Source of the DNA: Candidatus Shapirobacteria bacterium
GTDB lineage: Bacteria > Patescibacteriota > Microgenomatia > UBA12405 > JAUWLS01
Reading direction: 5' to 3'
Assembly (NCBI GenBank): GCA_030613565.1
Contig: JAUWLS010000004.1
Location: forward strand, 1-46,324
Length of the DNA stretch: 46,324 bases
The translations under genes were made by a program, and so were the position numbers. Below are positions 1 to 46,265 of the stretch, piece after piece; position 1 is the stretch's first letter, and each line of letters opens with the position of its first letter. The notes beneath the pieces are model-generated. The model saw only the letters and a list, made by a program, of their open reading frames with translations. It made no database searches and was not told the origin of the DNA.

Positions 1-754
1 TTAGTTTCTTTTTAGGAGAAGATGGAGCTGGAGCAGAAGGGGTTTTGGGGGTGGTAGAGAGAGGGGGGTGGGTTGGAGAAAGATCGGGGGTGGATGGAGT
101 TTCCTCTTTGGGGGGTGAAGTGTCTTTTAGATCAAGAATAATGGCGGCAATATCAGAAGAGTCGGGTTTGGAATAGATTTTTGTAGAAAGAGATTCTTTT
201 AAAGATGTGGTATCTGGGTTTTGAAATTCAGTGGAAACAGAATCCGGAAAAGAGGAAAGAAAAGATGAACTTAAAAGAAGATAGCGGTCAGAATCTTTGG
301 GGGCACCAGAGACAATTTGGGGATTGTTTTTGGTGGGAGAAATAAGAGTGGCGGTTTTTTGGTTTCTAATGAGAGTGATGGTGGAATCTCCAAAGGTGCC
401 AAGATAGATAAAGTCCTTGTAGTGAATAGCGATAGCAAGAGAGGTTTTTAGTTTTCCTTCAACAAAGACAGGATGTTCCTCCCCTACTTTCTTTAAAGTT
501 TCTTTGAGTTGATCAAAGGGGGTGTTTTTGGAATCCGTAAAATAGGATTCGTTGAAGAAAGAAATGAGTTCTTTTCCGATGGTACTAATTTCTTGGTCTT
601 GGTCTTCTTTTTTGATAGTTATAAGACCGAAAAGACGACCTCTTTTTTCCAAAAGATCCGAGTCTTGAGGTTGGTTTTCCCAAAATTGAGACCAAGTAGT
701 GTCCGTGGGATGTCCAATGATGGGACGAGTAGAAAAGGACAGGTTTGCAGGCAT
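1..754 (-). CDS. Partial CDS (runs off the left edge): PP2C/SpoIIE-like fold protein, probably degenerate, followed by a Pro/Ser/Thr-rich linker
   Basis: Not in the ORF track. Manual translation from ATG 754 is open to position 2: MPANLSFSTRPIIGHPTDTTWSQFWENQPQDSDLLEKRGRLFGLITI...IYLGTFGDSTITLIR...DRYLLLSS...SDIAAIILDL, then TSPPKEETPSTPDLSPTHPP. GDS and DIAAIILDL resemble PP2C motifs. Confidence 0.7.
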   Translation of the reverse strand, partial: MPANLSFSTRPIIGHPTDTTWSQFWENQPQDSDLLEKRGRLFGLITIKKEDQDQEISTIGKELISFFNESYFTDSKNTPFDQLKETLKKVGEEHPVFVEGKLKTSLAIAIHYKDFIYLGTFGDSTITLIRNQKTATLISPTKNNPQIVSGAPKDSDRYLLLSSSFLSSFPDSVSTEFQNPDTTSLKESLSTKIYSKPDSSDIAAIILDLKDTSPPKEETPSTPDLSPTHPPLSTTPKTPSAPAPSSPKKKL

Positions 755-773
755 TCTAATTTATGATAGCAGA

Positions 774-989
774 CTAGAGAACAACGAAGGCTAGAATGAG
801 GACAAGGACGGCAAGAATGAAATGGATTTTGGAGAGAAGTTTGATCTGAAGATTAAGATTTCCGGAGACAATTTTGGTCATTACAGAGACTTGTTTAACC
901 ACAACATAGGCAAAAACAAGATAGAGGGAGAGGGCAATAAGACTGATTATTTTGGCAGAGAGTAAAACTAGAGAGCTGATTTGGGTCAT
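774..989 (-). CDS. Small two-TM membrane protein (DUF5657-like, CPR-conserved)
   Basis: 71 aa with two hydrophobic helices and the segment LYLVFAYVVVKQVSVM; overlaps the upstream gene's stop by 4 nt. Confidence 0.7.
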   Translation of the reverse strand: MTQISSLVLLSAKIISLIALSLYLVFAYVVVKQVSVMTKIVSGNLNLQIKLLSKIHFILAVLVLILAFVVL

Positions 990-1726
990 CTTAGTCTCCC
1001 TTCTAGGGCCTCTTGCTTTTCTTCAAGACGCATTAGTTGAAGTATTTTTTGAACCTTGGTGGGATTGGGAACAGAAAGGAATTCAAACTCAGGGACTTCG
1101 GCAGCAGTTTGGATGTAAACATCACCGTAATTGAATAGAGAATGAAGGAGACCGCCTTGCTTAACAGTGACGTCTTGGATGGCTTCTAGTTCAGCATCAG
1201 AGATTTCTTTGTACATGAGGGAGTAAAAGTCGATATCGACAATGCGCTCATCGGTAATAATACTGACGTTAAAGTACCAGGAAAGGAAGTTTTCTAAAAC
1301 AAAGGCAAAAACGAGAAGATACCAACTAATAAGGGCAATGAATTGAAAACGCCAAGGGCAAAGATCAATGAAAGGAAGGGTTTTTATGAAAGAGGGGGCT
1401 AGAAACATAAGAAAGGTGACAAAAGCCCAGGGCAAATTAGTAATCCAATGACGACGAAGGACAACAAGGACTTCTTCATCTTTAAATTGAGATTCGAAAG
1501 CAAACCTCTTTTTAGGACGGGCTATGAAGGAAGTAAAAGAACCATTATTAGTTCCAATGAGGCGGTAGACCTGTTTTCTGAACTGATTGACAGCAGATTT
1601 AGTTTTCTTTTTTATTTTTTTCTTGGTGGAGGTTTTGGATTTTTGGGGAGAAGATGGTGTCTTTTTAGGTTTGGTTCGGGGTTCGTCAGGGGCTATATCG
1701 TCAAGATTTTTGGCTCGAGGTGACAT
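986..1726 (-). CDS. Membrane protein with bacterial PH domain (bPH_2/DUF304-like)
   Basis: Motifs RRHW, two TM helices, IITDERIVDIDF, IQDVTVKQGG, FNYGDVYIQTA, VPNP; TATAAT 5 nt before ATG. Confidence 0.8.
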   Translation of the reverse strand: MSPRAKNLDDIAPDEPRTKPKKTPSSPQKSKTSTKKKIKKKTKSAVNQFRKQVYRLIGTNNGSFTSFIARPKKRFAFESQFKDEEVLVVLRRHWITNLPWAFVTFLMFLAPSFIKTLPFIDLCPWRFQFIALISWYLLVFAFVLENFLSWYFNVSIITDERIVDIDFYSLMYKEISDAELEAIQDVTVKQGGLLHSLFNYGDVYIQTAAEVPEFEFLSVPNPTKVQKILQLMRLEEKQEALEGRLR

Positions 1727-1756
1727 GAGTAATTATAGCAGTAAAAAGAGTTGGTT

Positions 1757-5305: not shown

Positions 5306-6190
5306 ATGGAAAAAGTAAAAAAAGGACTGATTGCAGCTGGTGGGTGGTCAACTAGATTTTTACCAGCAGTTAAGACATTTGCTAAGCAAATGGTTCCCAT
5401 TTTAGATAAACCAGGAATTCATTACCTGGTGGAAGAAATGATTGGGGCAGGTGTGGAAGAAATAGCAGTGGTTTCTAGACCAGGAGAAAAGAGTATTGAA
5501 AAGTATTTTAAAGAAGATAAAGAACTTTTTGAATATCTAAAAAAGAGTGGAAAAGAAAAGTGCATGGAAAGCTGGAGGGAAGTAAAAAAGAAGATAAAAA
5601 AATGGGAGTTTTTTGAACAGGGAGATGACTTACCTTATGGGAACGCAAGTCCAATTTTGGCAGCAAAAAGTTTTATTGGAAATGAAGCATTTGTTTACAT
5701 GTTTGGAGATGATTTTGTTTTGGAAGAGGAAGCGGGAGAATATCTTTCTCATTTAATCTCTGTTTTTTCAGAGCATGACCCTGATGTGGTTTTGGGAGTA
5801 CAAGAAGTGCCCACAGAAGAAATAGATAGATACGGAATTGTGGAGTACATGAAAGATAATAAGTACCCCAACAGAGTAAAAAGGGTCATAGAAAAACCGG
5901 CTGCGGATAAAGCCCCGTCTAATATGGCACAGTTTGGAAGGTTTATTTTATCTACTGAGGTGTTAGAGGTCTTAAAAAGACTAGAACTAGGAATCGGAGG
6001 AGAGCTTTGGTTGGCTGATGCAAACAATATGATGGCAAAAGAAGGAGTGGCAATAGCAGAACCGATTAAAAATGGTGAATGGATGACGACTGGAGATCCG
6101 TTGCGATGGTTGAAGGCGAATATAAAAGTGGCTTGGGGAAAAGAAGAATACAGGAAAGAACTGGAAGAACTAATGAAAGAATTAAAGTGA
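5306..6190 (+). CDS. galU: UTP-glucose-1-phosphate uridylyltransferase-like sugar-phosphate nucleotidyltransferase
   Basis: AAGGWSTRFLPAVK..KQMVPILDKP, GDD, RYGIV, IEKP, GELWLAD, TGDP. Confidence 0.8.
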   Translation: MEKVKKGLIAAGGWSTRFLPAVKTFAKQMVPILDKPGIHYLVEEMIGAGVEEIAVVSRPGEKSIEKYFKEDKELFEYLKKSGKEKCMESWREVKKKIKKWEFFEQGDDLPYGNASPILAAKSFIGNEAFVYMFGDDFVLEEEAGEYLSHLISVFSEHDPDVVLGVQEVPTEEIDRYGIVEYMKDNKYPNRVKRVIEKPAADKAPSNMAQFGRFILSTEVLEVLKRLELGIGGELWLADANNMMAKEGVAIAEPIKNGEWMTTGDPLRWLKANIKVAWGKEEYRKELEELMKELK

Positions 6191-7047
6191 AGAAAGTAAG
6201 AATATGGGGAGTGAAACTTCGGCCCAACAGTCCTGAGTTGAAGAAAGTTTATCTTAAACTGGAAAGGTTTTTGAAGAGTAAGGGAGAAGAGGCGATGATT
6301 GAAAAGGAAAGTGGAAACATGATTGGGATAAAGGGAGGGCAGATGAAAGAGGTTCTTAAAAAGGTGGATGGTTTGATTTCGATTGGAGGGGATGGGACTT
6401 TTTTAGGATTGGCAAGGGAAAGTTTTTTGTCCGGAAAAACAATATTGGGGGTAAATGCTGGAAGTTTAGGGTTTTTGACGGAAGTGTCTTTGGAGGAAGT
6501 GGAGGAAGTTTTGGAAAAAATTATTTTAGGAGAATGTGTAGAAAAGGAAAGAATGGTAATGGAAATAGAATTACCGTCCAGCAAGAACGAGAAAGTGTAT
6601 GCAGTAAATGAGATTGCCATAAAAGGAAAGAATGTGGCAGAACTTGTTCGACTGGAACTTTGGATGGATGGAAAGTATGTGAACACTTATAGTGGAGATG
6701 GACTAATAGTGGCGACACCAACAGGATCAACGGCTTACAGTCTTTCAGCTGAAGGACCAATTTTATATCCCTTTGCGAAAAATTTTATTTTTACACCAAT
6801 TTGCCCTCATTCTTTTTCTCAAAGACCTCTGGTAATTCCGACAACCTTTTTGGATATTGAGGTAAGAGTGCCGGCAAAAGGAAGAAAGGTGGTAGTGGTA
6901 GTAGATGGACAAGAGGAACATGAACTAAAGAGAGGAAAGGGGTTGAAGATAAGAAAAGCAGAGAAAGGAGTAAGGGTTTTTAGTAACAAAAACAATGATT
7001 TTTTTAAGGTTTTGAGAGAAAAGCTTGGCTGGGGAGAAAGAAATTAA
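6187..7047 (+). CDS. nadK: NAD(+) kinase
   Basis: GGDGT, GSLGFLT, NE, GDGLIVATPTGSTAYSLSA, TPICPHS, DGQ; likely start is GTG 6187 overlapping the galU stop (GTGA). Confidence 0.93.
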   Translation: MKKVRIWGVKLRPNSPELKKVYLKLERFLKSKGEEAMIEKESGNMIGIKGGQMKEVLKKVDGLISIGGDGTFLGLARESFLSGKTILGVNAGSLGFLTEVSLEEVEEVLEKIILGECVEKERMVMEIELPSSKNEKVYAVNEIAIKGKNVAELVRLELWMDGKYVNTYSGDGLIVATPTGSTAYSLSAEGPILYPFAKNFIFTPICPHSFSQRPLVIPTTFLDIEVRVPAKGRKVVVVVDGQEEHELKRGKGLKIRKAEKGVRVFSNKNNDFFKVLREKLGWGERN

Positions 7048-14338: not shown

Positions 14339-15800
14339 AAAGGAGGTGATCCATCCGCTCCTTCCAGAACGGATACCTTGTTACGACTTAACCCTCATCG
14401 CCGGATTTGCCTTAGTCCCACAAAAAATATGTGAGGTATCGGGCACCCCCGACTTTGCTGATTTGACGGGCAGTGTGTGCAAGAGGCGAGAACGTATTCA
14501 CCGCAGTCTGCTGATCTGCGATTACTACCAATTCCAAGTTCATGCAGGCGAATTTCAGCCTGCAATCCCAACTGAGAACTGTTTTAAGGATTAGCTCCAC
14601 CTCGCGGTTTGGCAACCCTCTGTACAGCCCATTGTAGGATGTGTGTAGCCCTGGACATAAGCATCATGCTGACTTGACGTCTTCCACTCCTTCCTCCCAA
14701 CAAAATAATGCTGGGCAGTCTCTCGTGACATAGTAACACGAGACATGGGTTGCGTTCGTTACCCCACTTAAGGGAACAACTCACGTCACGAACTGACGAC
14801 AGCCATGCAACAGCTGTGTACCACTCTCGAAGAAGTCCACCTTTCGATGGATTTGCAGGTACATGTCAAGCCCAGGTAAGGTACAGCGCTTCATATCGAA
14901 TTGAACCACATGCTCCACTGGTTGTGCGCCTCCCCGCCAATTCGTTTGAGTTTCAACCTTGCGGCTATACTCCCCAGGCGGCTCGCTTAACGCGTTAGCT
15001 TGCGCCTCACAGATAAATCCATAAGGCTAGCGAGCATCGTTTAGGGCTAGGACTACCTGGGTCTCTAATCCAGTTTGCTACCCTAGCTTTAGTCTCTCAG
15101 TGTCAGTACATACCTAGCTACCTGCCTTCGCTCTTGGTGTTCTTGATGGTATCCACGGATTTCACCCCTACACCATCAATTCCAGTAGCCCCGATATGAC
15201 TCAAGTCTAATAGTATTTCGCCCCTTTCCCCAGTTAAGCCGGGGTATTTAAAACGAAACTTTTTAAACCACCTACAGACGCTTTACGCCCAGTAAATCCG
15301 GGTAACGCTTGCAACCTACGTATTACCGCGACTGCTGGCACGTAGTTAGTAGTTGCTTATTCTGCCCCCGATATGGGGGCTAAAAGAGGTTTACAACCCG
15401 AAGGCCGTCATCCCTCACGCGGTGTCGCTGCGTCAGACTTTCGTCCATTGCGCAAGATTCCTAGCTGCTGCCTCCCGTAGGAGTATGGGCCGTGTCTCAG
15501 TCCCATTGTGTCGGACCCTCCTCTCAGAGCCGATATCCGTCATAGCCTTGGTAGGCCATTACCCTACCAACAAGCTGATAGAACGCACGCTCCTCCCTGA
15601 GCGGATAGTTACATCCTTTACTCTTTCGAGAACTATGGAGAATTACCCTCGATTTCTCGAGGCTATGCTCCTCTTAGGGGTAGATTCGTACGCGTTACTC
15701 ACCCGTTCGCCACTGCCTATCCGAAGATAAGCCGTTCGACTTGCATGCCTTAGGCACACCGCCAGCGTTCACCCTGAACCACGATCAAATTCTTAGTGAC
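14339..15800 (-). rRNA. rrs: 16S ribosomal RNA (solitary, no large intron)
   Basis: 5' AGAATTTGATCGTGGTTCAG; ACTCCTACGGGAGGCAGCAG; GTGCCAGCAGTCGCGGTAA; AAGTCGTAACAAGG; 3' GGATCACCTCCTTT; about 1460 nt. Confidence 0.99.
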
Positions 15801-16569: not shown

Positions 16570-16598
16570 ATCGTACTAAAAAGCGTACGCTTTGTCAA
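16570..16598 (-). promoter_or_regulatory. Sigma70 promoter of the Phd-RelE pair with a 14-bp palindromic operator
   Basis: TTGACA-17nt-TACGAT-5nt-ATG; palindrome AAAGCGTACGCTTT at 16580-16593. Confidence 0.85.
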
Positions 16599-21134: not shown

Positions 21135-21170
21135 TTTTAATTTTTGCGTAGGGGATGGTATATTTTGAGC

Positions 21171-21326
21171 ATGTGTGAAGGTAAAAAGGAAGGCTGTGGG
21201 CTCTGCGCTCGTCAAGGACTGATCGAGTTAAGAGAAGTTACGGTTTTACCTCAAGGTAAGGTACCAGAAATAAGAGAATGTAGTGGTAAAAAACAGGAAG
21301 TGGTTATAGTAGTGAAAACAGGTTAA
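21171..21326 (+). CDS. Orphan 51-aa microprotein with 4 Cys
   Basis: MCEGKKEGCGLC...REC; TG-G-TATATT-6nt-ATG. Confidence 0.55.
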   Translation: MCEGKKEGCGLCARQGLIELREVTVLPQGKVPEIRECSGKKQEVVIVVKTG

Positions 21327-25392: not shown

Positions 25393-25402
25393 CAACCTGT
25401 CC

Positions 25403-29154: not shown

Positions 29155-29209
29155 TCAAGATAGTTTTTTTTAGGAAAAGATAAGAGTGGTTTGAATGATA
29201 GAATTGGGA

Positions 29210-31762: not shown

Positions 31763-32122
31763 TTTAAAGTGGGAGTGGAGCCTTATTTTGACGGAGGATA
31801 CAATGCAGAATGGTTTTCAAGGGAGGCGAATATAAGATCAATTGGATGTTGTAGCATTGAGCCAGAAGAGGCAAGAGCAGGTGACAATGTAGCTTGGGGC
31901 GTGGGGGCAAGTTGTGGTGGGGGGAGTTGTACCAGCAACATTGCCTGTTGCGGTCATATTGGAGTTTTGACGGAAAACTTAGGAAGTGGAGAGGCAGGAA
32001 TAAACTGGTTTTTGTATACGTCAGCCAATGGAGGGAACGGAACAATGTCGACAACAAGAATTAACCCAGCGGACACAGGAAGTGTATTTAGTTGTGATCC
32101 AGCAAGGTGTGTAGGACAATAA
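31763..32122 (+). pseudogene. In-frame C-terminal half of the CHAP-like domain, separated from the upstream ORF by one TGA
   Basis: CAG TGC GTG TGA TTT AAA GTG = QCV*FKV; the frame continues with YNA, ARAGDNVAW, CCGHIGV, TSANG. Confidence 0.75.
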
Positions 32123-32138
32123 AATGTAGAATAAAGAA

Positions 32139-32780
32139 ATGAAAGAATTTTTTAAAAAATATCAAATCATTTTAGGACTAGCCTTTCTGACAGTAGTACT
32201 TTTGATGGTGAAAGTACTTTATGTTGAGAAAGAGGGAGAAAAGTTGATAGTAAAGAAACTGGTTCCAGCAGTGGAGGAAGAGTTTTTTGAAAGAAGAGAT
32301 TTTAAATTTAAGGTTTACTTTTCTCAAGACATAGTAAAAGACTGGGAGAAGTTAAAGTTGACAGTAGAACCAGAGTTAGAATTTAGAAAAAGTTTAGGAG
32401 AAGAACCAGGAGTTTTAGAGGTCTGGGTAAATGGAAAGATAGAAGCAGGAGTAAGGTATAAGTGGAGTGTAAGTTTGAAAAATGAGTTAGTTGGAGAGTG
32501 GGAGTACAGGAGTAGTGATCTAAGTGAGGGAGAAAAAAAGAGCAGAGGTCTGGGTAATCCAGAGCAAATAATAGAAATAGCAGTGGATCAGTATATGAAA
32601 TATCCTTTGCTTGATTACATGCCCTATTCAAATGAAGACTTTTCTTTAAACTATTTAGAACCTTTGAGCTTGATAGTAAAAATTAAAGGAAGTGAAAGAG
32701 AAGCAATAATGGAACAGGTGAAGTATTGGATGAGATCTAAAGGAGTGGATCCAGAGAGTCACACAATAGAGTGGAAGTAA
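32139..32780 (+). CDS. Membrane-anchored hypothetical protein with an Ig-like domain
   Basis: N-terminal TM, KVYFSQDI beta-sandwich, C-terminal YPLLDYMPY...WMRSKGVDPESHTIEW; TAGAAT-5nt-ATG. Confidence 0.75.
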   Translation: MKEFFKKYQIILGLAFLTVVLLMVKVLYVEKEGEKLIVKKLVPAVEEEFFERRDFKFKVYFSQDIVKDWEKLKLTVEPELEFRKSLGEEPGVLEVWVNGKIEAGVRYKWSVSLKNELVGEWEYRSSDLSEGEKKSRGLGNPEQIIEIAVDQYMKYPLLDYMPYSNEDFSLNYLEPLSLIVKIKGSEREAIMEQVKYWMRSKGVDPESHTIEWK

Positions 32781-32805: not shown

Positions 32806-33663
32806 TTATTTACCACCTTTTAATTTTTCAGCGCTGGGTTGTTTTTTCAACAACTGTCTTTTTTGTTTTTCTAGTTGTTTGATGTGGGTTTCGGGAGGCA
32901 GGTCTTCTGGCATAGTACCCCCAATATCTTTAATCGACTTTCTAACTTTTTGACCGACAACAGTATGTGCGAAGGTTGCCCTACCCTCACCTTTAACCTT
33001 TTCCCTTCTAAGTTTTTCGTCTGTTTGAGTGATACGAAATAGGTTGGCAGCTAATTCTACTGCTCCTGCCCTGTCGAGGACACTGTCAGAGCCAATCCCT
33101 TTCTTTTTTTGTACACTTTTTGCACTCATTCCATAAAGACCTGAGTATCCTGCGTTATTAAATCTTCCGAAGTTTTTAACCCCTGCTTGATATGCAGTAG
33201 TATTTAGTTCCTTGTTGTGAGTTTTAACCTTGCCTCTTAAAGATAATCTTTGCTCGCCTTCTTCGAGTTGTTGAAATAACTCATGTCTTCTGGTTTGAAT
33301 AGCAAAATAGGTTTGAGCGTTGGCAATTTCTTGTTTACTGGGGTCACCATTTTGAGCTATTAAGTAACAAGCATAACGGGATAATTTGTAGTCTTGAATT
33401 TTCCTCTCTGTTTCTTTTAATGTTCCGGCAGCAATTTTTATCATTTTGCCGATGTCGGCAAAATGATCTTCCGTAACTTGACTGCTTTTGTTGCAGGCTA
33501 TTTTTGCCTTTTTAATAACAATTTTCTCAAAATTACTCCACTTCAGATAACCCAATAGAATCATTAATTCGCGAGCTTCCCAGTACTCAACTCCGTTTTC
33601 ATCAATCTTTTTGATTTCCTCAAAGTTTTTATGTGGTGCTGATATTAGTGATCGGTCTGTCAT
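32806..33663 (-). CDS. dinD: DNA-damage-inducible protein D (Bro-N domain)
   Basis: FEEIK, EYWEARELM..LGY..W, LSRYACYLIAQNGDPSK..IANAQTYFAIQTRR, ELAANLFRITQT, GGTMPEDLP. Confidence 0.93.
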   Translation of the reverse strand: MTDRSLISAPHKNFEEIKKIDENGVEYWEARELMILLGYLKWSNFEKIVIKKAKIACNKSSQVTEDHFADIGKMIKIAAGTLKETERKIQDYKLSRYACYLIAQNGDPSKQEIANAQTYFAIQTRRHELFQQLEEGEQRLSLRGKVKTHNKELNTTAYQAGVKNFGRFNNAGYSGLYGMSAKSVQKKKGIGSDSVLDRAGAVELAANLFRITQTDEKLRREKVKGEGRATFAHTVVGQKVRKSIKDIGGTMPEDLPPETHIKQLEKQKRQLLKKQPSAEKLKGGK

Positions 33664-33683: not shown

Positions 33684-34805
33684 TCAATCTTGGAGTCGAA
33701 CCGGCATGATGATGTGAACAAAAGAAGGGTCCTTAGGGTCAGTAAAGACGCCAGGAGAGAGAGAGTCACCGAGTTTAATCTCTAAGACGTCTGATTTACA
33801 AACGTTTAGGAAATCGAGGATAAAGCGATAGTTAAAAGCAATGTCTAATTCAGGTCCCTCAATCTTTGCTGGGACAGTGGCAGTGTTTTGTCCGACTTGA
33901 GGAGAGTTAGCAGTAAGGACGAGAGAATCTTTTTTGACTTTTACTTTGACAACATTGGCAGACTCGCGAGCAAAGACAGAAGCAAGACGAAGATTTTGAG
34001 TGAGCTCTTCTTTGTCGATGGTGATTTTAATTTTATGATCAGAAGGAAGAATTCTTTCGTAGTCTGGGAAGTTTCCGTCAATTAGCCTGGAAGCAAGAGT
34101 AAGATCAGGAAGAGAGAAAATGACTTGGTTTTCATCTTTGGTAAGACCGATCTTTAGGGCATCTTCGGACTTGGCAAGTTTTATGATTTCTTGAAGAGTT
34201 TTGGCTGGAATCAAGAAAGAGAGTTGGTCTTTTTTACCAATAGACACAGGAGTTTCTAAGGTTAAGTCCTTTAAAGAAAGGCGGTAGCCGTCGGTGGCGA
34301 CCATTCTCAGTTTGTTTTCAAAAAAGTGCCAGTAGACTCCGGTTAAAACGGGACGAGTGTCATCGGTGGCGGCGGAATAAACAATTTGAGGGAGAGTGTC
34401 AGTTAAGAGTTTGGTAGGGATGGAAAAAGATTTTTTGGGATCCATAACTGGAAGTTCAGGAAAGTCTTTGGGGTCTAGGCCGGCAAAAGTGGTTTCAGTT
34501 TGAGGAGAAGTTAATTTCACTTTAAGTTTTTGATCAGTGGCAAAATCTATCTTTCCAGGAGAGAGATAAGAGACATATTCAGCTAATTCTTTGGCAGGGA
34601 GAGTAATGGAGCCTTCTTTTTCTACTTTTGCTCCAAGAGAGAGATTGATGCCGGCTTCGAGGTTGGTGGCAGAGAGATGAAGTCTCCCCTCTTTGGTGGA
34701 AAAGAGAATGTTGCTAAGAATTGGAAGTTGGGTTTTGGTTGAAACAAAGCGAGAAACTGTAGAGAGGGCTTGGTTTAAATTCTCTTGAAGAATGGAGAGA
34801 TTCAT
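33684..34805 (-). CDS. dnaN: DNA polymerase III beta sliding clamp
   Basis: LPILSNI, ATNLE, TRPVLTG, ATDGYRL, GNFPDY, IAFN, IIMPVR. Confidence 0.98.
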   Translation of the reverse strand: MNLSILQENLNQALSTVSRFVSTKTQLPILSNILFSTKEGRLHLSATNLEAGINLSLGAKVEKEGSITLPAKELAEYVSYLSPGKIDFATDQKLKVKLTSPQTETTFAGLDPKDFPELPVMDPKKSFSIPTKLLTDTLPQIVYSAATDDTRPVLTGVYWHFFENKLRMVATDGYRLSLKDLTLETPVSIGKKDQLSFLIPAKTLQEIIKLAKSEDALKIGLTKDENQVIFSLPDLTLASRLIDGNFPDYERILPSDHKIKITIDKEELTQNLRLASVFARESANVVKVKVKKDSLVLTANSPQVGQNTATVPAKIEGPELDIAFNYRFILDFLNVCKSDVLEIKLGDSLSPGVFTDPKDPSFVHIIMPVRLQD

Positions 34806-35124
34806 ATGGTTTAGGATATCATGAATTTAAGGGTGGAAATGAGTAAGGTAGAGAGAATGTGGATAAAGGAATGTATTAAATAAATAAGATAAAAGAAATA
34901 GTAGACGTAGTATTAGGGGGTGTTGATAAGTAGGAAAGGTTGAGTGGGTGAACTTGGAAAAACGGGGGGAAAGTAAAAAAAGGCGGAAAGTTTAGATTGG
35001 AGAAGAAGGAATTGACTTATAAGAAAGACAGGGGTTTGGGTTATGTTTGGTTGAAAAAAGAGAGGAGTTGGTGGAAATGTTTGTGGATAAAAAAGAGAAG
35101 GATGTGGAAAAGTATTTTTAAAGA
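34806..35124. other. oriC: Putative replication origin oriC (dnaA-dnaN intergenic region)
   Basis: DnaA boxes TGTGGATAA (34858, 35082), TGTGGAAAA (35103) and TGTTGATAA (34921); AT-rich tract 34871-34900; DnaA-trio-like TAG TAG ACG TAG TAT TAG plus GGGG abutting the 34921 box. Confidence 0.85.
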
Positions 35125-36498
35125 TTAGTAGTTTTTTCTAATAGTGACGATTTCGTGTCGAATTTGTTGATTTGTTGAAAAGAGGTGTTTTATTTTGTCG
35201 ACAGCGTGCATGATACTAGTGTGGTCTCGTCCACCAAGGATTCTTCCAATTTCTTGTAAAGGTAGGTCTAAATCAGTTCTTAAAAGGTAAGCAGCAATGT
35301 GGCGAGCTGTGACTAGATCTTTTTTTCGACTTTTCCCCAAAAGGTCAGAGGTTTTAATTTTGAAGTGTTTGGAAACTAGGGAGATGGCATGGCGGTGAGT
35401 GATCTTCTTTGTCTCCCCTATTTTGGCTTTTAGGCCAAAGAATTGTTGGACAGAGTTTAAGTTAATTTGGGCAATGTTTTGAGAAGAAGTTTGGAGAGTT
35501 AGTTCTCTAAATTTCCCTTCAATTTCCCTAACGTTTGATTCAACTGTGGTAGCAAAGAGATTTAAGGCATCGGGATTGATAGAGATGTTTTTTTCAGAGA
35601 TGTATTGCTTTAATATGGCTAGTCTGGTTTCGTAGTCAGGATGTTGAATATCGACAGTTAATCCTCCTTGGAAACGGGAAACAAGACGGTCTTCGAGTTG
35701 CTGGATTTCTTCAGGCTTTTTGTCTGAGGTAAGGATGATTTGTTTACCGGCCATATAGAGGGCGTTGAAGGTATGGAAGAATTCTTCCTGGGTGTATTCT
35801 TTGCCGGCAATGAATTGGATATCGTCGATGAGAAAGACGTCCAGTTTTCGGTATTTGTTTTTAAATTTAGAAACGGTTTTTTGTTGGATGGAAGCAATAA
35901 GTTCGTTACCAAAAGTTTCAGCAGAAGCGTAGAGAAGTTTTAGATCAGGATTCTTTTCTAAAATGGCGTGACCAGTGGCTTGCATAAGATGGGTTTTACC
36001 TACTCCTACCCCACCCCAGATAAAAAGTGGATTGTAGGCGAGACCGGGATTTTCAACGACGGCTTGGGCGGCAGCGTAGGCAAAGTTGTTGCTGTTTCCG
36101 ACAATGTAGTTATTAAAGATATATTTGGGATGAAGAATAGAAGGGGGCTTGGGAGGAGAAAATGTGGGTGCAGATGAGGTGGGGGTAGAAGTGGTTTTGG
36201 GAGAAACCTGATCAAAGAGAGGAGATGGTTGACCGTTTTTTTCTTCAGGGGGTCTTTTGTAGGTTATAAAGAGAAGGGAGTTATTGGCTTTGGTTTGATT
36301 GTCGAGGGCGGATTTTAAGAGAGAGTAATAGCGCTTTTGAGCAAGGTCGGCAAGATAGGGATTAGGAAAGGCAATGGTAGCTATATCCCCTTCTTTCTTT
36401 TTAAGGACAGATTGACTGAAAAAGGTTTGAAAAACGGAAGGAGAAACAGAGACTTTGATTTCCTCTAGGGTGTTTTTCCAGATTGTGTTTTGGTCCAT
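35125..36498 (-). CDS. dnaA: Chromosomal replication initiator DnaA
   Basis: YNPLFIWGGVGVGKTHL, IDDIQF, QEEFFHTFN, NVREIEG, GGRDHTS. Confidence 0.99.
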   Translation of the reverse strand: MDQNTIWKNTLEEIKVSVSPSVFQTFFSQSVLKKKEGDIATIAFPNPYLADLAQKRYYSLLKSALDNQTKANNSLLFITYKRPPEEKNGQPSPLFDQVSPKTTSTPTSSAPTFSPPKPPSILHPKYIFNNYIVGNSNNFAYAAAQAVVENPGLAYNPLFIWGGVGVGKTHLMQATGHAILEKNPDLKLLYASAETFGNELIASIQQKTVSKFKNKYRKLDVFLIDDIQFIAGKEYTQEEFFHTFNALYMAGKQIILTSDKKPEEIQQLEDRLVSRFQGGLTVDIQHPDYETRLAILKQYISEKNISINPDALNLFATTVESNVREIEGKFRELTLQTSSQNIAQINLNSVQQFFGLKAKIGETKKITHRHAISLVSKHFKIKTSDLLGKSRKKDLVTARHIAAYLLRTDLDLPLQEIGRILGGRDHTSIMHAVDKIKHLFSTNQQIRHEIVTIRKNY

Positions 36499-36577
36499 AG
36501 TTTACAAGAAAATTAAGATATGAAAATGGCAGAAGTGGTGGGACAGAGGGGGTCAGACCTGATTTATTCTAGATGAG

Positions 36578-36586
36578 TTTTCCACA
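36578..36586 (+). promoter_or_regulatory. DnaA box upstream of dnaA
   Basis: TTTTCCACA matches the consensus TTWTNCACA; lies in the dnaA-rpmH intergenic region. Confidence 0.65.
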
Positions 36587-36673
36587 ATGAACAAGAGGGT
36601 AAGTGGGGATGTTTTTGGTTTTATTTGGGATAAGGATTCCTAAGAAGAGTAAGGTTTGGTATAATAGCGCGTT

Positions 36674-36842: not shown

Positions 36843-37187
36843 GTGCTTTTAAAGGAAAGAATGATTTCTCTAGATAAGGATTTTAAAGAGGTATTGGCGG
36901 ATGGAGTAATGCAGCAATCTCCCCTATTTGGAATGTTGGTTTTAAAAAGAGAAGGAGAGAAAACTAGGTTTGGAGTGATAGTTTCTAAAAAGATTGATAA
37001 GAGGGCAGTTACTAGAAACAGAATAAGGAGAGTGATTTTGGAGTCAGTGAGACTTTCACTGAGCAGTGTTAAAGATGGTTATTTGGTAGTTTTTTTAGCA
37101 AAGAAGAGATTGGTGGGTTTGGGATTGGAAGAAGTGGGGAAAGAAGTGATAGAGAGTTTTAAAAAGGCAGGATTGATTTTGAAATGA
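36843..37187 (+). CDS. rnpA: Ribonuclease P protein component
   Basis: RFGVIVSKKIDKRAVTRNRIRR; conserved position after rpmH. Confidence 0.95.
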   Translation: MLLKERMISLDKDFKEVLADGVMQQSPLFGMLVLKREGEKTRFGVIVSKKIDKRAVTRNRIRRVILESVRLSLSSVKDGYLVVFLAKKRLVGLGLEEVGKEVIESFKKAGLILK

Positions 37188-37420
37188 AAAGAGGAGTTTT
37201 AGGATTGATTAGATTTTATAAGAGATGGCTTAATATAGACTCCCCTATTTTAAAAGGTCTTTTTGTAGTTGATAAGGCTTGTAGATTCAGACCCAGCTGT
37301 GCAGATTACACGTATAAGGCGGTAGAAAAGTATGGAGTTTTAAAAGGATTGAGGATGGGATTTTTGAGAGTTATTAGGTGTCACCCGTTTTCTAAGGGTG
37401 GTTGGGATCCAGTGAAATGA
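37184..37420 (+). CDS. yidD: Membrane protein insertion efficiency factor YidD
   Basis: CRFRPSCADY, RCHPFSKGGWDPV. Confidence 0.95.
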   Translation: MKRGVLGLIRFYKRWLNIDSPILKGLFVVDKACRFRPSCADYTYKAVEKYGVLKGLRMGFLRVIRCHPFSKGGWDPVK

Positions 37421-37445: not shown

Positions 37446-38222
37446 ATGAAAGAATTATGGACAACAGTTTTATACCAACCCTTGATCAATGCTTTATTTG
37501 GTCTTTACATGGTGACGGGGAATTTGGGGGTGGCCATTATTGGATTAACAATCGGAATTCGATTTTTAATGATGCCTTTGACTTTACCTTCAATGAAGTC
37601 AGCTCAGAAGATGAAGGACTTGGCGCCAGAATTAGCTAAGCTTAAGAAAAAGTGGGGGCATGATAAAGAAAAGATGGCTAAAGCCCAGATGGATTTTTAC
37701 AAAGAAAGAGGAGTAAATCCAGCTTCGGGGTGTTTGCCTCAGATTGTTCAGATCATAGTTTTGTTGGCCATGTTTCAGGCTTTTAGGAATGGTTTGAATC
37801 TAGAAGGAACAGAGGCAGTTAGCAAAATTAATGAAAGTTTGTATTCCTTTTTACAGTTACCTAGTGACTTTTCATTCAACCTAAAGTTTTTATATTTAAA
37901 TTTGGCTGAACCAGATTTAATCAAAATTGGGGCAATATCAATACCGGGATTGTTTTTGACAGGATCAGCAATTTTCCAGTTTATATCAGCAAAGCTAATG
38001 ATGCCTAAAGCGGAGAAAGATGTGAAGATAGCTAAAAAAACAGAAGAGAAGAAAGATGACATGATGGCAGCAATGCAGAAACAATCTTTGTTTTTGATGC
38101 CTTTATCAACTTTGTTCATTGGTTATAGTTTCCCTTCAGGATTAGTACTTTATTGGTTTGTTTTTTCGGTATTTAACACGATTCAACAGTTAGTGCTTAA
38201 GAAGGTTGGGTCAAAAAAGTAA
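37446..38222 (+). CDS. yidC: YidC/Oxa1 membrane protein insertase
   Basis: GVAIIGLTIGIR, NPASGCLP, FPSGLVLYW; conserved synteny. Confidence 0.95.
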   Translation: MKELWTTVLYQPLINALFGLYMVTGNLGVAIIGLTIGIRFLMMPLTLPSMKSAQKMKDLAPELAKLKKKWGHDKEKMAKAQMDFYKERGVNPASGCLPQIVQIIVLLAMFQAFRNGLNLEGTEAVSKINESLYSFLQLPSDFSFNLKFLYLNLAEPDLIKIGAISIPGLFLTGSAIFQFISAKLMMPKAEKDVKIAKKTEEKKDDMMAAMQKQSLFLMPLSTLFIGYSFPSGLVLYWFVFSVFNTIQQLVLKKVGSKK

Positions 38223-38255
38223 GGCTGAAAAGGACTTGTGATAAAATTGGTGGAT

Positions 38256-38759
38256 ATGGCCAGCAAAATAACAATTGATCAGGACACAGTTTCCAAAATA
38301 GAAGAGAAGGTTCGAGGACTTTTAACTTTGATGAATAGAGTGGGAACAGAGGTAGAGATAAACGTGATTGAGGAAGAGGGCGAAGAGAAAATAATGGTTA
38401 AGTTTTTAACTGATGATCCAGGACCAATGATTGGGTTTAAAGGTAAACATTTGGCAGCAATGCAGATGATGTTGGGGTTGATGGTGAATAACAACAGAGA
38501 AGAGTGGATAAGAATATTGGTGGATATAAATGAATACAGAGATGAGCAGAAAGTAAGACTGGAAGAGAAGGCAAGAAACTTTGCCCAACAGTGCTTGGAT
38601 ACAGGAAGACCAGTAGGACTTGAAAGAATGAGTTCTTTTGAGAGAAGGATTGTTCATATGACTTTGGCTGAAGTTGAAGGAGTAGAGACAGGGTCTGAAG
38701 GTGAAGGAGAGATGAGAAGAGTGGTGATTAGACCTGCCGGCTCTTTAGATGCAGAATAA
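38256..38759 (+). CDS. jag: Jag/KhpB-like KH + R3H RNA-binding protein (no Jag_N domain)
   Basis: MIGFKGKHLAAMQ, VDINEYR, MSSFERRIVH, SEGEG..RRVVI; start moved to ATG 38256. Confidence 0.9.
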   Translation: MASKITIDQDTVSKIEEKVRGLLTLMNRVGTEVEINVIEEEGEEKIMVKFLTDDPGPMIGFKGKHLAAMQMMLGLMVNNNREEWIRILVDINEYRDEQKVRLEEKARNFAQQCLDTGRPVGLERMSSFERRIVHMTLAEVEGVETGSEGEGEMRRVVIRPAGSLDAE

Positions 38760-42006: not shown

Positions 42007-45000
42007 ATGTCAGAAAGAGGTTTTTCGAAAATTGAGTTTGGGGCTGAGAATCCAGTGACAATAGTTTATGGAATGGGGAGCTTTTTGGCTAAGCATGTTT
42101 GTGAAGAGCTGGTAAGAAAAGGATTGAATGTTTTGGGAGTGGGGGAGGTGGATGAGAAGAGTATTTCTTTTTTGGAAAACGAAAAACAATTTAGACATGT
42201 TAACTATTTGGTGGATAGTTGGGCGGAAAAGATAGATCCTGCTTATGTGTTTGATTTGGAGGGATCAGAAGAGCTTTGGAAGTGGGTAGAGAAGTGGGGA
42301 TCCAGGATAGTTATTTTACAAGATTGGAAAGACAATGAGGAAGGTTATAAGAAAAGAGATATGGACTGGAGAGTGGTGAAAACAGGAATGGTGTATGGGC
42401 CAGGAATGATGTTTTCTGATTCGGGTTGGTTGGGAAAAGTCTTTCAGGAGGCAGTGGGAAACGAAAGGATGATTTTTCCTGGAAAGAAAACAGATGAATG
42501 GCCGGTTTTGTATGTAAATGATTTGGTCGAGCTTTTGATGGGAGCTTGCTTTTTTCCAAATGTTTCAAAAGAGGTTTTAGAAGTAGGAGGAAGAGAGGTA
42601 GAGCTAGGTAAGTTTGCGAAAGTTTTAGAGGATGTAGGAAAGACAACGAAAGGAATGGGTTTTGAGGGTGGAGTATTGCCTTGGAGTGTTGCGAAAGAAA
42701 AGATGGGGATAGAAGAAAGGGTTAGTTGGGAAGCGGAGACGGAGATAGAAGAGGGAGTTCGGTTGACAATGCAGGACTTTTTTCAGAGAAAAGAAAAAGG
42801 AGAAAATTTAGGTAAGACTACCAGGGTAGAAGAAAAGAAAGTGGAGATTAAAGAAGAAGAGCCAATAGAGGAAGAAAAGATTGAGAAGAAAAGATATCAA
42901 ACAGTGGAAGTTTTGGGTTCGGAAAAGGAGGAAGGAGAATCTGAAACCAAAGAAAAGTTTGAAGAGACAGTTGCAGTAACTCCCTTAAAAGAAGAAGTAA
43001 AAGAAGTTGAAGAAGAAATCGACTGGTTAAAGAGAGTGGAGGAGAAAATAGAACGGGAAGTGGAGGAAAAGATGGAGATAGAAAAAGAAGAGATAGCAGC
43101 TCCAGTAGAAAAAAAGAAAGAGTTTGGAATTTCTGAACAAGAAGAAGTGGTTCGTTTCTTTGCAGAAGAGAAGAAGGGGCTTGGGTTTGGAAAGAGAGTA
43201 AAGAAAGAAAAGCAAAAGGTAGAGAAAGTGGGGAAAAAGAGGGGGTGGGGGAAGTGGTTAACAATAGTGTTGTTGGTTGGCTTTTTAAGTTTGATTTCTG
43301 GTCCAATCTTCATGATAGTAGATGGATATTTAGTCTTTAAAGATTTATCCAAAGTTAAATCTTTAGTAGTCTCTAAGAACTGGGGTTTGGCAGAAGAGGT
43401 TCTGGTTACTAGTAAAAAAAGAGTAGAGAGGATGGAGGGAAAAATTGGCCGGTGGGGAGTAAGAGACTGGCTGTGGGGAAGAAGATTTTCAGATTTGGTG
43501 GTTTTAGAAAGAGAAGTTTTGGAGGTAGGGGAGATAGGACTGGAGTTGGTTAAGACAGGGGATACTTTTTCTCAGGGAGTGTTTCAGGCAGAGGTAGTTG
43601 ATTGGGAAGGTGAGTTTTTAAGACTAGGAGAGAACTTGGAAGAACTAGAAGAAGGGTTATCTATGGTTCAGGCGAGAATGATAGGAGATTGGGGATGGTT
43701 GCCTGGTAAGTGGAGAGGAGAACCTAGAAAATGGGGGGAGAGGATAGGAGAAGGAAAAGATAAAATTTCATATTTAAGAGAGAGCTTGCCAGTGTGGGAG
43801 TATGTTTTGGGAGTAGGAGGAGAAAAAAGAGAATTTTTAGTACTTTTACAAAACGAAATGGAGATTAGGCCAACAGGAGGATTCATTGGCTCGGTTGGAT
43901 TTTTGAGTTTTCAAGATGGTCAGTTTTTAGATTTTTCAATTAAGGATGTTTACAGTTTGGATGGTCAGCTTAAGGGACATGTGGATCCACCAGAGGAGCT
44001 GGAGAAATATTTGGGTGAACCAGGATGGTACTTAAGAGATGCAAACTGGGATCCTGATTTTTCAAAGTCAGTAACGGATATAAATTGGTTTTTAGAAAAA
44101 GAAACAGGAAAGAAAGTGGATGGGGTAATAGGAATGAATTTGGCAGTGGCTGAAAAAATAGTGGGGGTGGTTGAGAAAGTTTATATACCAGACTATGAAG
44201 AAGAGATAACAGTAGAAAACCTTTATGAACAGGCAGAGCTTTATTCAGAGAACAAGTTTTTCCCGGGTTCCTCTCAAAAAGCAACATTTTTAGGAATGCT
44301 TGGAAAAGTCCTTTTAGAAGAAGTAAGGCTTTTGGGTCCAGATGGATACTTAAAACTAGGAGAGGCACTTTTGGGATCTTTAGAAGAAGGGGAGTTAATG
44401 ATTTCTTTTAATAAAGGAGAAGGGGTAGAGGAATCAAGAAGAATTCTTTCAGATACAGGGTGGGATGGGCAGTTACAAAAAGTGAGTTGTAGCAAGAGTG
44501 GTTGCGGGGTTAACTATTTACATATTAACGAGGCGAATGTGGGAGTGAACAAAGCCAATTACTTTTTAAAAAGGGGAGTAGAGCAGGTGGTTGATCTTAG
44601 AGTTGACGGTTTTTCAAGTGTAGTAAAGATTAATTATGAGAACACAGCAAGGACTTCGGCGTGGCCGGCGGGAGATTATAAGGCATATGTAAGAGTTTAT
44701 GTTCCAAGAAAATCAAAAGTTGATTGGGTAAAAATTGGAGGAGAAGGAGAAGAGGGGTTAAAAATTTCAGGAGATGATCTTAGCGAAAAGACAGTGGGGG
44801 ATAAAAAAGAATTAGGATTTTTACTAAAAGTTCCAGTTTCAGAAAAGAGAAAAGTAGAAGTTAAGTATAGTTTGGATTTTTCTAAGGCAGGGGAGAGTTT
44901 GTCTTTCATTTATTATCTTCAAAAGCAGGCTGGATGGGGAAATAGAACTCCATTTTCTTTAGTGATTTCAGTTCCTGAAGGATGGAACCCATTGCAGGTT

Positions 45001-45090
45001 TATCCAGAGGCAACAATAGTGAGCGGAAAGCTTTTGTATTCAGATCAGATTGAAAAAGACTTAAAGATTGGGGTGGAGTTGGGAAAGTAG
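42007..45090 (+). CDS. DUF4012-domain membrane protein with an N-terminal degenerate NAD-dependent epimerase-like domain
   Basis: IVYGMGSFLAKHV, VYGPGM, LYVNDLV; Glu/Lys-rich linker; TM; LLQNEMEIRPTGGFIGS, LRDANWDPDF, ANVGVNKAN, YVRVYVP, QKQAG. Confidence 0.85.
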   Translation: MSERGFSKIEFGAENPVTIVYGMGSFLAKHVCEELVRKGLNVLGVGEVDEKSISFLENEKQFRHVNYLVDSWAEKIDPAYVFDLEGSEELWKWVEKWGSRIVILQDWKDNEEGYKKRDMDWRVVKTGMVYGPGMMFSDSGWLGKVFQEAVGNERMIFPGKKTDEWPVLYVNDLVELLMGACFFPNVSKEVLEVGGREVELGKFAKVLEDVGKTTKGMGFEGGVLPWSVAKEKMGIEERVSWEAETEIEEGVRLTMQDFFQRKEKGENLGKTTRVEEKKVEIKEEEPIEEEKIEKKRYQTVEVLGSEKEEGESETKEKFEETVAVTPLKEEVKEVEEEIDWLKRVEEKIEREVEEKMEIEKEEIAAPVEKKKEFGISEQEEVVRFFAEEKKGLGFGKRVKKEKQKVEKVGKKRGWGKWLTIVLLVGFLSLISGPIFMIVDGYLVFKDLSKVKSLVVSKNWGLAEEVLVTSKKRVERMEGKIGRWGVRDWLWGRRFSDLVVLEREVLEVGEIGLELVKTGDTFSQGVFQAEVVDWEGEFLRLGENLEELEEGLSMVQARMIGDWGWLPGKWRGEPRKWGERIGEGKDKISYLRESLPVWEYVLGVGGEKREFLVLLQNEMEIRPTGGFIGSVGFLSFQDGQFLDFSIKDVYSLDGQLKGHVDPPEELEKYLGEPGWYLRDANWDPDFSKSVTDINWFLEKETGKKVDGVIGMNLAVAEKIVGVVEKVYIPDYEEEITVENLYEQAELYSENKFFPGSSQKATFLGMLGKVLLEEVRLLGPDGYLKLGEALLGSLEEGELMISFNKGEGVEESRRILSDTGWDGQLQKVSCSKSGCGVNYLHINEANVGVNKANYFLKRGVEQVVDLRVDGFSSVVKINYENTARTSAWPAGDYKAYVRVYVPRKSKVDWVKIGGEGEEGLKISGDDLSEKTVGDKKELGFLLKVPVSEKRKVEVKYSLDFSKAGESLSFIYYLQKQAGWGNRTPFSLVISVPEGWNPLQVYPEATIVSGKLLYSDQIEKDLKIGVELGK

Positions 45091-45091
45091 G

Positions 45092-45391
45092 ATGAAAAAT
45101 TTTATAAGAAAGAGGGAAGATTTTATTTGTGAGGTTTGTGGGGAAGAAGTTTTGGGGGATGGTTATACAGATCATTGTCCGAAATGTTTGTGGGGGAAGC
45201 ATGTGGATGAGGAGGTTCCAGGAGATAGGAATTCAGAATGTGGAGGATTAATGAGACCAATAAAGGCTTTGCATGAGAAGGGGAGGTTTAAGATATTTTA
45301 TAAATGTGAGGAATGCGATCATGAATTTGGGGTTAAGGAAGGTAAAAATGACAAGAGAGAAAAACTTTTGGAACTATCAAGAATGGTTTAG
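45092..45391 (+). CDS. RNHCP-domain zinc-ribbon protein
   Basis: FICEVCG, YTDHCPKCLWGKHVD..PGDR..ECGGLM, CEEC; start moved to ATG 45092. Confidence 0.9.
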   Translation: MKNFIRKREDFICEVCGEEVLGDGYTDHCPKCLWGKHVDEEVPGDRNSECGGLMRPIKALHEKGRFKIFYKCEECDHEFGVKEGKNDKREKLLELSRMV

Positions 45392-45462
45392 TGCGGATAA
45401 AATTCAGACATTGTGCGGTATTTGTGGAGAAAAGAAGATTAAGGCTTGTGGTAGAATGAGCC

Positions 45463-46265
45463 GTGGCTAGCAAAAAGAAAAAAGAAGTTAAAAAAACAAG
45501 TAAGAAAAAAGGTTTGGACTGGGATAGTTTACCTAAAGAGCTTAAGGATAAATTACCAAAACAAATGAAGGTAAAAAAGATGGTAGTGATTAATCCAAAG
45601 AACGTGATGAGATGGATTTTGTATCTTTTGATTGGGTTTTATTTTTTAGGAATGGTTCTAACTGCACTGGGTCCGGAGGTTTCAAAGATAAGCCTCTCAG
45701 AAGCGATAAGAGACATTAAGGAAGGAAGGGTGGAGAGTATAAAGGTAACAGGGGATAAGATTTCACTGAAACTGACTGACGGAGCAGGAGTGGTAGTAAC
45801 AGAGAAAGAAGAGGACGTTAGTTTTTCAGAAATATTAAATGATGCTGACGTGGACACTTCTAGTTTGGACTTTGAGGTGGATAATATGTCAGGGATGAAG
45901 ACGTTTGGAAATGTGGTTTTAAATTTATTATCAATTGGTTTGCCTCTTATTTTCATCTATTTTATTTTTAGACAAGTCGGAAAGGCACAGGGTGGAGTTT
46001 TTAACTTTGGGAAATCAAAAGCAAAGTTATTTATAAAGGGAAAACAAAAGACGACCTTTAAAGATGTGGCAGGAGTGGAAGAAGCAAAGGAAGAGTTGGA
46101 AGAAATAGTAGATTTTTTGAAGCATCCTGAAAAGTACAGAAAGATGGGAGCGAGGATTCCAAGAGGAGTTTTATTGGTAGGTCCGAGTGGAGTAGGAAAA
46201 ACTCTGTTGGCGCGTGCTGTGGCAGGTGAAACAGGAGTGGCATTTTTTTCAATGGCAGGGAGTGA
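45463..46265 (+). CDS. ftsH: ATP-dependent zinc metalloprotease FtsH, truncated at the end of the sequence
   Basis: Two TMs, [59 protein letters not shown]; homology breaks off after about 46265. Confidence 0.95.

Follow-up and report, generated by a model that had tools for sequence, protein, structure and literature searches.

The 46,324-nt stretch of DNA analysed here (the window; all coordinates are those of its plus strand) is the origin region of the chromosome of a Microgenomates bacterium of the candidate phyla radiation (CPR) related to Shapirobacteria. It extends 35 kb to one side and 10 kb to the other of the spacer between dnaA and dnaN, the candidate origin of replication (oriC). 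The excess of G over C on the plus strand does not invert at this spacer; it keeps a single sign through both flanks, and at silent sites it is several-fold larger than in relatives whose skew inverts at the same place. These features suggest, with somewhat better than even confidence and on the evidence of sequence comparison, that a single fork, starting from the dnaA–dnaN spacer, copies essentially all of the chromosome.

The plus strand contains 12432 G and 5875 C, which corresponds to a GC skew of +0.358 at a GC content of 39.5% (z = 48.5 for the G excess against G = C); the AT skew of the whole window is +0.041. The combination of a large G/C disparity with little overall A/T disparity is that of Candidatus Chazhemtobacterium aquaticus Ch65, Collierbacteria and Beckwithbacteria (Kadnikov et al. 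2020, PMC7143001). Summed along the window, the skew rises monotonically, without a turning point, from a minimum at base 1 to a maximum at base 46264. In 1-kb windows the skew is positive in 32 of 34 to the left of the dnaA–dnaN spacer and in all ten to the right of dnaA, both negative windows falling in the 16S rRNA gene. At 500-nt resolution 8 of 184 windows are negative, six in the 16S rRNA gene and two in the open reading frame (ORF) at 32806–33663 (see below). The 16S gene (14339–15800, on the minus, C-rich strand) has a plus-strand skew of −0.15 because its sequence is constrained. An earlier note on this DNA had counted G and C in five 60-nt lines, and its values (32:4, 26:8, 19:10, 26:2 and 27:1) were all exact on recount.

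At four-fold degenerate sites the pooled GC skew, in plus-strand coordinates, is +0.64 in plus-strand genes (3095 sites) and +0.83 in minus-strand genes (2215 sites), and that of intergenic DNA (5783 nt) is +0.32. The disparity is thus independent of gene strand, as in Ch65, and the strand bias is not a coding artefact. Around the origin the four-fold values are +0.87 in dnaN, +0.86 in dnaA, +0.82 in rnpA and +0.55 in yidC. This bears out the claim of the earlier note that the sign is the same on either side of the origin and for both coding strands, and no inversion near 35 kb is seen at the four-fold sites of dnaN, dnaA or rnpA. The total skew is higher on the right flank than on the left (0.50 vs 0.32) because the right-flank genes are all on the plus strand. 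A gradient of skew away from the origin was considered and rejected, since four-fold values are similar on both flanks, and 46 kb supports no conclusion in this respect. The G-rich strand carries 62% of the coding bases in the window.

Two minus-strand genes, uppS and a cyclase gene, had been singled out in the earlier note as nearly neutral, which is correct for uppS (overall skew +0.07) and less so for the cyclase (+0.21). The neutrality is confined to the constrained first and second positions of their codons, which resist the bias, whereas the four-fold sites are skewed (+0.78 and +0.76, respectively). The bias extends to the proteins, whose composition varies about two-fold with the coding strand. 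V, E, G and M are approximately 2–2.4 times commoner in plus-strand products, while in minus-strand products H is 3.3 times, Q twice and P and T about 1.75 times as frequent, with some excess of S as well. The protein bias described in the earlier note is therefore confirmed for V, E and G on one strand and for H, P, T and to some extent S on the other, while K (ratio 0.90) and L (0.88) do not follow it. Many ORFs of 110–220 amino acids lie on the minus strand antisense to real plus-strand genes (for example 27960–28406, 29368–30030, 42848–43306 and 43970–44368); naive ORF calling over-predicts genes on the C/T-rich strand because this strand is poor in stop codons.

The locus itself has the features of a classical origin neighbourhood, in which rpmH, rnpA, yidD, yidC and jag on the plus strand diverge from dnaA and dnaN on the minus strand. 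The dnaA gene (35125–36498, minus, C-rich strand; 457 aa, TIGR00362, 477 bits) and dnaN (33684–34805, minus strand; 373 aa, profile match) are separated by a spacer of 319 nt (34806–35124) that is 65% AT and has a GC skew of +0.87. By sequence match, this candidate oriC contains the only two perfect DnaA boxes of the 46 kb (34858–34866 and 35082–35090) and two boxes with one mismatch (34921–34929 and 35103–35111), all four on the minus strand. A candidate unwinding element lies at its dnaN side, where the most AT-rich 36-mer of the spacer (34863–34898) reaches 86% AT. A further one-mismatch box is found on the plus strand (36578–36586) in the dnaA–rpmH spacer (36499–36673). The window as a whole has 24 DnaA-box matches with at most one mismatch where 11.7 are expected, a number reached in none of 100 shuffles. 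The four boxes and the AT-rich stretch support the earlier note in speaking of a canonical-looking DnaA origin. Of the usual hallmarks of oriC, a DnaA-box cluster and an AT-rich element near dnaA are present and a GC-skew inversion is absent.

To place the window among its relatives, the 80 best of 597 confirmed dnaA loci were taken from a species-representative genome collection, with up to 10 kb of flank each and dnaA oriented plus; the search query was an alignment of 28 DnaA proteins related to that of the window. The latter is 77–80% identical to three database proteins and 54–59% identical to many labelled Shapirobacteria or Woesebacteria. Many of the loci are titled 'uncultured Gammaproteobacteria', in conflict with the DnaA tree, and these titles were treated as submitter labels. 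With at least 1 kb required per flank, loci were classed by thresholds of our own as one-signed C-rich (both flanks below −0.15, dnaA on the C-rich strand), one-signed G-rich (both flanks above +0.12, dnaA on the G-rich strand) or inverting (upstream below −0.03, downstream above +0.03). Both flanks are negative in 14 loci and positive in nine, 22 are inverting and 20 have weak skew; four have one scorable and strongly skewed flank (negative in two, positive in two), and 11 are undetermined.

In the inverting class the presence of a sign change is a result of the selection, and its position, +1 to +2 kb from where dnaA starts, coincides with the dnaA–dnaN spacer. In the C-rich class, all 1-kb bins are negative in all 15 rows (14 loci and the window; maximum −0.01), while the nine loci of the G-rich class, from the Collierbacteria clade, are positive throughout (minimum bin −0.02). 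The position of the inversion in the normal relatives indicates that the dnaA–dnaN origin is ancestral, that a recent translocation of dnaA is unlikely, and that in these relatives the G-rich strand leads. The 600 nt that follow dnaA contain on average 2.8, 4.9 and 3.4 DnaA boxes in a locus of the respective class, where the background density is 0.33–0.46 per kb, and a box cluster above background in every class implies that the origin has been retained. Gene order and orientation around dnaA are likewise conserved across all skew classes. Where found, yidC is upstream on the strand opposite to dnaA in 14/14, 9/9 and 13/13 loci of the three classes, and a VirB4-like gene is downstream, also on the opposite strand, in 12/12, 9/9 and 18/19, the exception being locus L013. 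No local inversion, therefore, separates the two one-signed clades. The orientation of near-origin genes was rejected as a marker of fork direction, being equal in the normal, C-rich and G-rich classes. The orientation of rRNA and tRNA genes in the relatives gave no such marker either, as the one-signed loci yielded neither 16S matches nor tRNA genes; tRNAs occur in only five of the relative loci, three with weak skew and two short and unclassed.

Two trees of this single gene, one built with FastTree from all 81 DnaA rows and the other by a quick IQ-TREE run on 45 of them, agree with each other, with supports of 87–95. The window falls in a DnaA clade of 17 rows, with record titles mostly of Shapirobacteria, that is sister to the Collierbacteria clade. 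Of the 16 other loci in the window's clade, 13 have both flanks negative, two have a single scorable flank, also negative, and one is too short; no inverting locus occurs among the 15 scorable ones. All 11 rows of the Collierbacteria clade are positive, with dnaA on the G-rich strand, in contrast with the C-rich strand in the window's clade. The two clades are distinct, with normal-skew lineages branching between them. Below the window's clade branch L015 and L016 (weak or short) and then L013, which is inverting and the closest normal-skew relative, and L046, also inverting, is basal to both one-signed clades. By this single-gene tree the window is outside the Ch65, Collierbacteria and Beckwithbacteria lineages of PMC7143001. 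The tree requires at least three changes of state, the third being in L043, a 4.2-kb contig far from the window's clade, in which both short flanks and dnaA are negative (about −0.2) and whose DnaA sister, L069, is weakly skewed. L043 may represent a third lineage with one-signed skew.

The asymmetry is unusual in its type. The four-fold AT skew in the window, in plus-strand coordinates, is +0.27 in plus-strand genes and +0.47 in minus-strand genes, so that the G-rich strand is also A-rich. Averaged over both gene orientations, the four-fold sites of the plus strand are approximately 46% A, 29% G, 21% T and 4% C. In dnaA and dnaN of the window's clade, the four-fold sites of the sense strand are 46–51% T, 29–36% C, 13–15% A and 5–6% G, whereas those of normal relatives have roughly even bases. 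The composition in Collierbacteria is shifted in the same manner relative to the normal baseline. On the G-rich strand, C is depleted relative to T among the pyrimidines, which points to a transition component as well. The asymmetry is thus one of purines against pyrimidines, unlike the G+T-rich signature of cytosine deamination alone. It would be consistent with the C-rich strand losing preferentially G and, to a smaller extent, A; oxidation or depurination followed by insertion of A are candidate causes. Leading strands of PolC-bearing Firmicutes have an excess of G as well as of A, a purine-type asymmetry like that of the window, although there the skew inverts at oriC and its amplitude is much smaller. 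Vertebrate mitochondrial DNA has a one-signed skew that is tied to asymmetric replication and comparable in amplitude to that of the window; its asymmetry, however, is G+T against A+C and not purine against pyrimidine.

The asymmetry is also unusual in size. The comparison of orthologues covered 18 loci of the inverting class, 17 rows from the window's clade and 11 from Collierbacteria, leaving out L013, L043, non-Patescibacteria and the weak or undetermined loci. On these same genes, the silent-site asymmetry is about 4–5 times that of the normal relatives in both one-signed clades. The sense-strand four-fold skew of the genes for DUF4012 and Wzy-like proteins, jag, yidC and rnpA is −0.03 to +0.07 in normal relatives, +0.36 to +0.59 in the window's clade and −0.41 to −0.82 in Collierbacteria. 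The corresponding values are +0.08, −0.68 and +0.40 for dnaN, and −0.22 to −0.25, +0.20 to +0.38 and −0.69 to −0.79 for the VirB4-like gene and PrgI. Since even the closest locus pairs are only 71–77% identical in DNA, silent sites are saturated and give no polarised substitution spectra.

A strand identity that is chromosome-wide needs a polar process that is chromosome-wide, for which no candidate is known other than the direction of replication. One of the two forks ancestrally launched by the DnaA-box origin would then copy nearly all of the chromosome, either by one-way theta replication or through immediate arrest of the other fork. The same strand would always be leading, and the strand-specific mutational bias would have a single sign. 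If the G-rich strand leads in the window's clade, as calibrated by the normal relatives only, the clade would keep the fork that leaves through dnaA towards rpmH, rnpA and yidC and would have lost the dnaN-side fork, and Collierbacteria would keep the opposite fork, leaving through dnaN. A second change would have to accompany the loss of a fork in order to raise the per-site asymmetry several-fold. The earlier note had reported a non-flipping skew at a canonical DnaA origin and had suggested that one fork is blocked or never launched. The first part holds at neutral sites, on both coding strands and in every scorable locus of the clade; the second part we infer, as we do the link between skew and fork direction, the identity of the surviving fork and the cause of the amplification.

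Several observations weigh against one-way replication from this origin. Fork direction is read from skew, and the extension to the whole chromosome is extrapolated from a sister lineage, the window covering 46 kb and the relatives ±10 kb. The number and orientation of the DnaA boxes are the same in the window's clade and in normal relatives, and no residue of DnaA tracks the skew class. The surroundings of the origin yielded neither a dif-like site, with a degenerate consensus that is perhaps not that of CPR bacteria, nor a terminator. The loss of one fork does not account for a 4–5-fold stronger silent-site asymmetry, nor is a purine/pyrimidine asymmetry the classical, G+T-rich signature of cytosine deamination; an intergenic AT skew of about zero counts against a purely mutational A/T component. 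To arrive at opposite polarities with the same synteny, either the event must have happened twice independently or the polarity must have switched. Finally, if the G-rich strand leads, the 16S gene, recF, dnaN and dnaA are head-on in the window, as would be the rRNA genes and a slight majority of genes (449/838) in Ch65 (PMC7143001); if the C-rich strand leads, 62% of the window's coding bases are head-on. The earlier note had named these four genes of the window as head-on if the G-rich strand leads, and all four are indeed on the minus strand; recF is genuine (16595–17668; TIGR00611, 291 bits against a cut-off of 172) and is not adjacent to dnaN.

Extended to both clades, the proposal is tentative, and we regard it as rather doubtful: two neighbouring clades would independently have made a conserved, ancestrally bidirectional DnaA origin one-way, keeping opposite forks, with amplified purine/pyrimidine asymmetry. 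If this were true, such a pairing would point to a changed mode of the replisome, such as uncoupled or delayed synthesis of one strand, and not to a simple fork trap. One-way replication from oriC would then be seen for the first time in primary bacterial chromosomes, a class of replicon for which bidirectional replication from oriC is treated as universal.

The asymmetry could also result from copying that is one-directional but different in mode, by strand displacement, in a rolling-circle-like manner or with strongly delayed lagging-strand synthesis. We consider this unlikely, though it is a serious rival. One strand would be single-stranded for long and accumulate damage, giving both a single sign and a large amplitude, for which such a mode could be the common cause. 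Single sign and amplitude do occur together in two clades, and the four-fold skew of 0.6–0.8 is far above that of normal relatives (about 0.1–0.25) and resembles in amplitude that of genomes copied by strand displacement, vertebrate mitochondrial DNA for example. In some bacteria, monotonic skews have been read as rolling-circle replication (Chen et al. 2020, PMC7111523), and Table S7 of that study lists 31 genomes with 'rolling circle' skew, no CPR genome among them. On the other hand, the DnaA-box origin is conserved as in normal relatives, and no Rep, nickase or relaxase domain was found among the 42 window ORFs scanned. The signature is A+G against C+T and not G+T-rich, as deamination on a displaced strand would make it, and the near-linear cumulative skew reported by Kadnikov et al. 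means that there is no gradient with distance from the origin (PMC7143001).

It is quite improbable that replication is bidirectional from an origin elsewhere, with the dnaA–dnaN locus retained but inactive inside one replichore and the inversion outside the 46 kb. The flanks seen are just 35 and 10 kb long, and a skew without a visible inversion cannot place an origin. The one-signed pattern, however, is found at dnaA in every scorable locus of the clade (15/16, one being too short), the DnaA-box cluster is kept at more than ten times background density, and normal relatives invert exactly at the spacer. The conserved cluster and the inversion of the relatives together speak against a relocated origin. 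In closed genomes of the sister lineages, moreover, there is no inversion anywhere (PMC7143001), and an origin elsewhere would leave the amplified amplitude unexplained.

There is also little probability, in our view, that the same fork survives in both clades and that the sign of the mutational asymmetry differs, through a different complement of polymerases or repair proteins, with the C-rich strand leading in one of them, possibly the window's own. In its favour, the gene order and orientation at the origin are identical in the two clades while their silent-site skews are opposite, and the 16S gene here, the rRNA genes of Ch65 and 449 as against 389 Ch65 genes are on the C-rich strand (PMC7143001). 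Purine loss from exposed single-stranded DNA, too, would make the leading-strand sequence pyrimidine-rich. Yet normal relatives have G-rich leading strands, and the G-rich strand carries the larger share of the window's coding bases. We know of no bacterium with a C-rich leading strand. Very improbable, lastly, is a skew that is not mutational and comes from an assembly artefact, from the orientation or transcription of genes, or from selection on codons or amino acids. The all-plus right flank, with its higher total skew, would be in keeping with it, but it is already contradicted by the four-fold sites of minus-strand genes, which exceed those of plus-strand genes in skew, and by intergenic DNA, and 15 other loci of the clade, taken from separate public records, show the pattern too.

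The proposed one-way replication from the dnaA–dnaN spacer can be compared with several known systems. One-signed skew in Microgenomates is itself already published, and the mention in the earlier note of a whole-chromosome one-strand skew in Ch65 and in Collier- and Beckwithbacteria agrees with the literature: the cumulative skew is near-linear over the closed Ch65, Collierbacterium and Beckwithbacterium genomes, with no inversion anywhere, and a PJMF01-family genome is normal in skew (Kadnikov et al. 2020, PMC7143001). From Table 1 of that paper we compute skews of 0.33, 0.135 and 0.155, respectively. Its authors proposed either that origin and terminus lie side by side or that theta replication is unidirectional; the text of the paper contains no occurrence of dnaA or oriC (PMC7143001). 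In Ch65 the rRNA genes are on the C-rich strand, as in the window, and of 838 genes 449 are on the C-rich and 389 on the G-rich strand (PMC7143001). These genomes show the extent of the pattern over closed chromosomes, whereas the skew of the window is known from a 46-kb contig and that of its relatives from ±10 kb. In a survey of 17,873 complete genomes, Ch65 is the only one that clearly departs from G = C parity within a strand (PMC11514846). The literature searched contained nothing on one-signed skew in Microgenomates besides Kadnikov et al. 2020, and nothing on Shapirobacteria and skew.

The chromids of Pseudoalteromonas are large replicons with a one-signed skew, like that of the window, and marker-frequency sequencing showed that they are replicated one-way, with the terminus and dif adjoining the origin (PMC7858055). 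They are, however, plasmid-derived, with a RepA-type initiator beside a main chromosome that is bidirectional, whereas the window has DnaA at a primary chromosomal origin; they have marker-frequency data and a dif site beside the origin (PMC7858055), whereas in the window, known from sequence alone, no dif was found near the origin with the consensus used. The closest comparison is with normal Microgenomates origins, which have the same gene order (rpmH-rnpA-yidD-yidC-jag, dnaA-dnaN and a type IV secretion cluster) and the same cluster of boxes in the spacer but invert there with small amplitude; the window has no inversion and a silent-site asymmetry 4–5 times larger. As far as the searched literature shows, four things are new: a Shapirobacteria-like clade has a one-signed skew, the highest so far; this skew runs straight across a canonical, conserved DnaA origin at which the skew of relatives inverts; Collierbacteria, with identical synteny, have the opposite polarity; and the silent-site bias is several-fold amplified and of the purine/pyrimidine type. 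A three-way natural comparison of inverting, one-signed C-rich and one-signed G-rich loci is thereby available. For these lineages, skew-based prediction of origins, skew-based checks of assemblies and growth-rate estimates that assume two replichores will mislead.

Nine columns of the DnaA alignment seemed convergent in both one-signed clades, but L013, with normal skew, has the derived residue at eight of them, which makes them markers of the clades and no correlates of skew. The search for dif or ter with a degenerate dif-like consensus, which may not be that of CPR bacteria, gave nothing near the origin, and the sole overlapping pair of matches (21330–21353) was discarded because its context resembles an extended −10 promoter in an AT palindrome. 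This promoter-like palindrome is part of a 500-nt 'intergenic' region (21135–21635) that seems, by eye, to contain short Cys-rich reading frames. Around the origin (32–38 kb), a search for repeats gave only short matches of low identity and no candidate polar terminator.

To the right of the origin are rpmH, for ribosomal protein L34 (36674–36829), rnpA (36843–37187), yidD (37184–37420) and yidC (37446–38222), all on the plus strand and identified by profile matches, followed by a jag/KhpB-like gene with KH and R3H domains (38238–38759, plus strand). Gene identities around the origin are from Pfam and NCBIfam profiles. On the other side, dnaN is directly followed downstream by the ORF with negative windows mentioned above, a DinD-like gene with a Bro-N domain (32806–33663, minus strand; NCBIfam NF008573, 342 bits against a cut-off of 242). 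It is full-length, with an overall skew of −0.09 and a four-fold skew of +0.52 as against +0.83 in the other minus-strand genes. No homologue was found in any of the 80 related loci, and in the closest relative, L001, dnaN is directly followed by the next conserved ORF, without a DinD-like gene. The gene appears to have been inserted recently and to be still short of the full strand bias of its host.

Beyond it, a type IV secretion-like cluster with PrgI, TrsD-like, VirB4-like and large proteins (24430–32780, plus strand) converges on dnaN. The presence of such a cluster near dnaA in Microgenomatia has already been published (PMC12102498). It converges on dnaN in nearly all Microgenomates loci (for example 12756–21333 in L010 and 12796–19915 in L067) and is therefore head-on to a rightward fork even in normal-skew relatives. 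In relatives its large protein carries a peptidase or CHAP domain. In L013 the origin region is rearranged: the cluster is upstream of dnaA on the same strand, genes for pyruvate:ferredoxin oxidoreductase flank dnaA and dnaN, and rnpA and yidC are not within 10 kb. An RNase H gene is present near the origin in two loci of the Collierbacteria clade (L067, 6188–6619; L047, 5421–5867), in a place occupied by a polysaccharide-synthesis gene in the window's clade.

The 16S rRNA gene of the window is solitary and is followed by uppS; no 23S or 5S match was found in the window, and ARAGORN detected no tRNA gene in the 46 kb. Near the left end, a nucleotidyl-transferase ORF (5306–6190, plus strand) overlaps a NAD-kinase ORF (6079–7047, plus strand) by 112 nt as listed, and the true start of the NAD kinase is probably further downstream.

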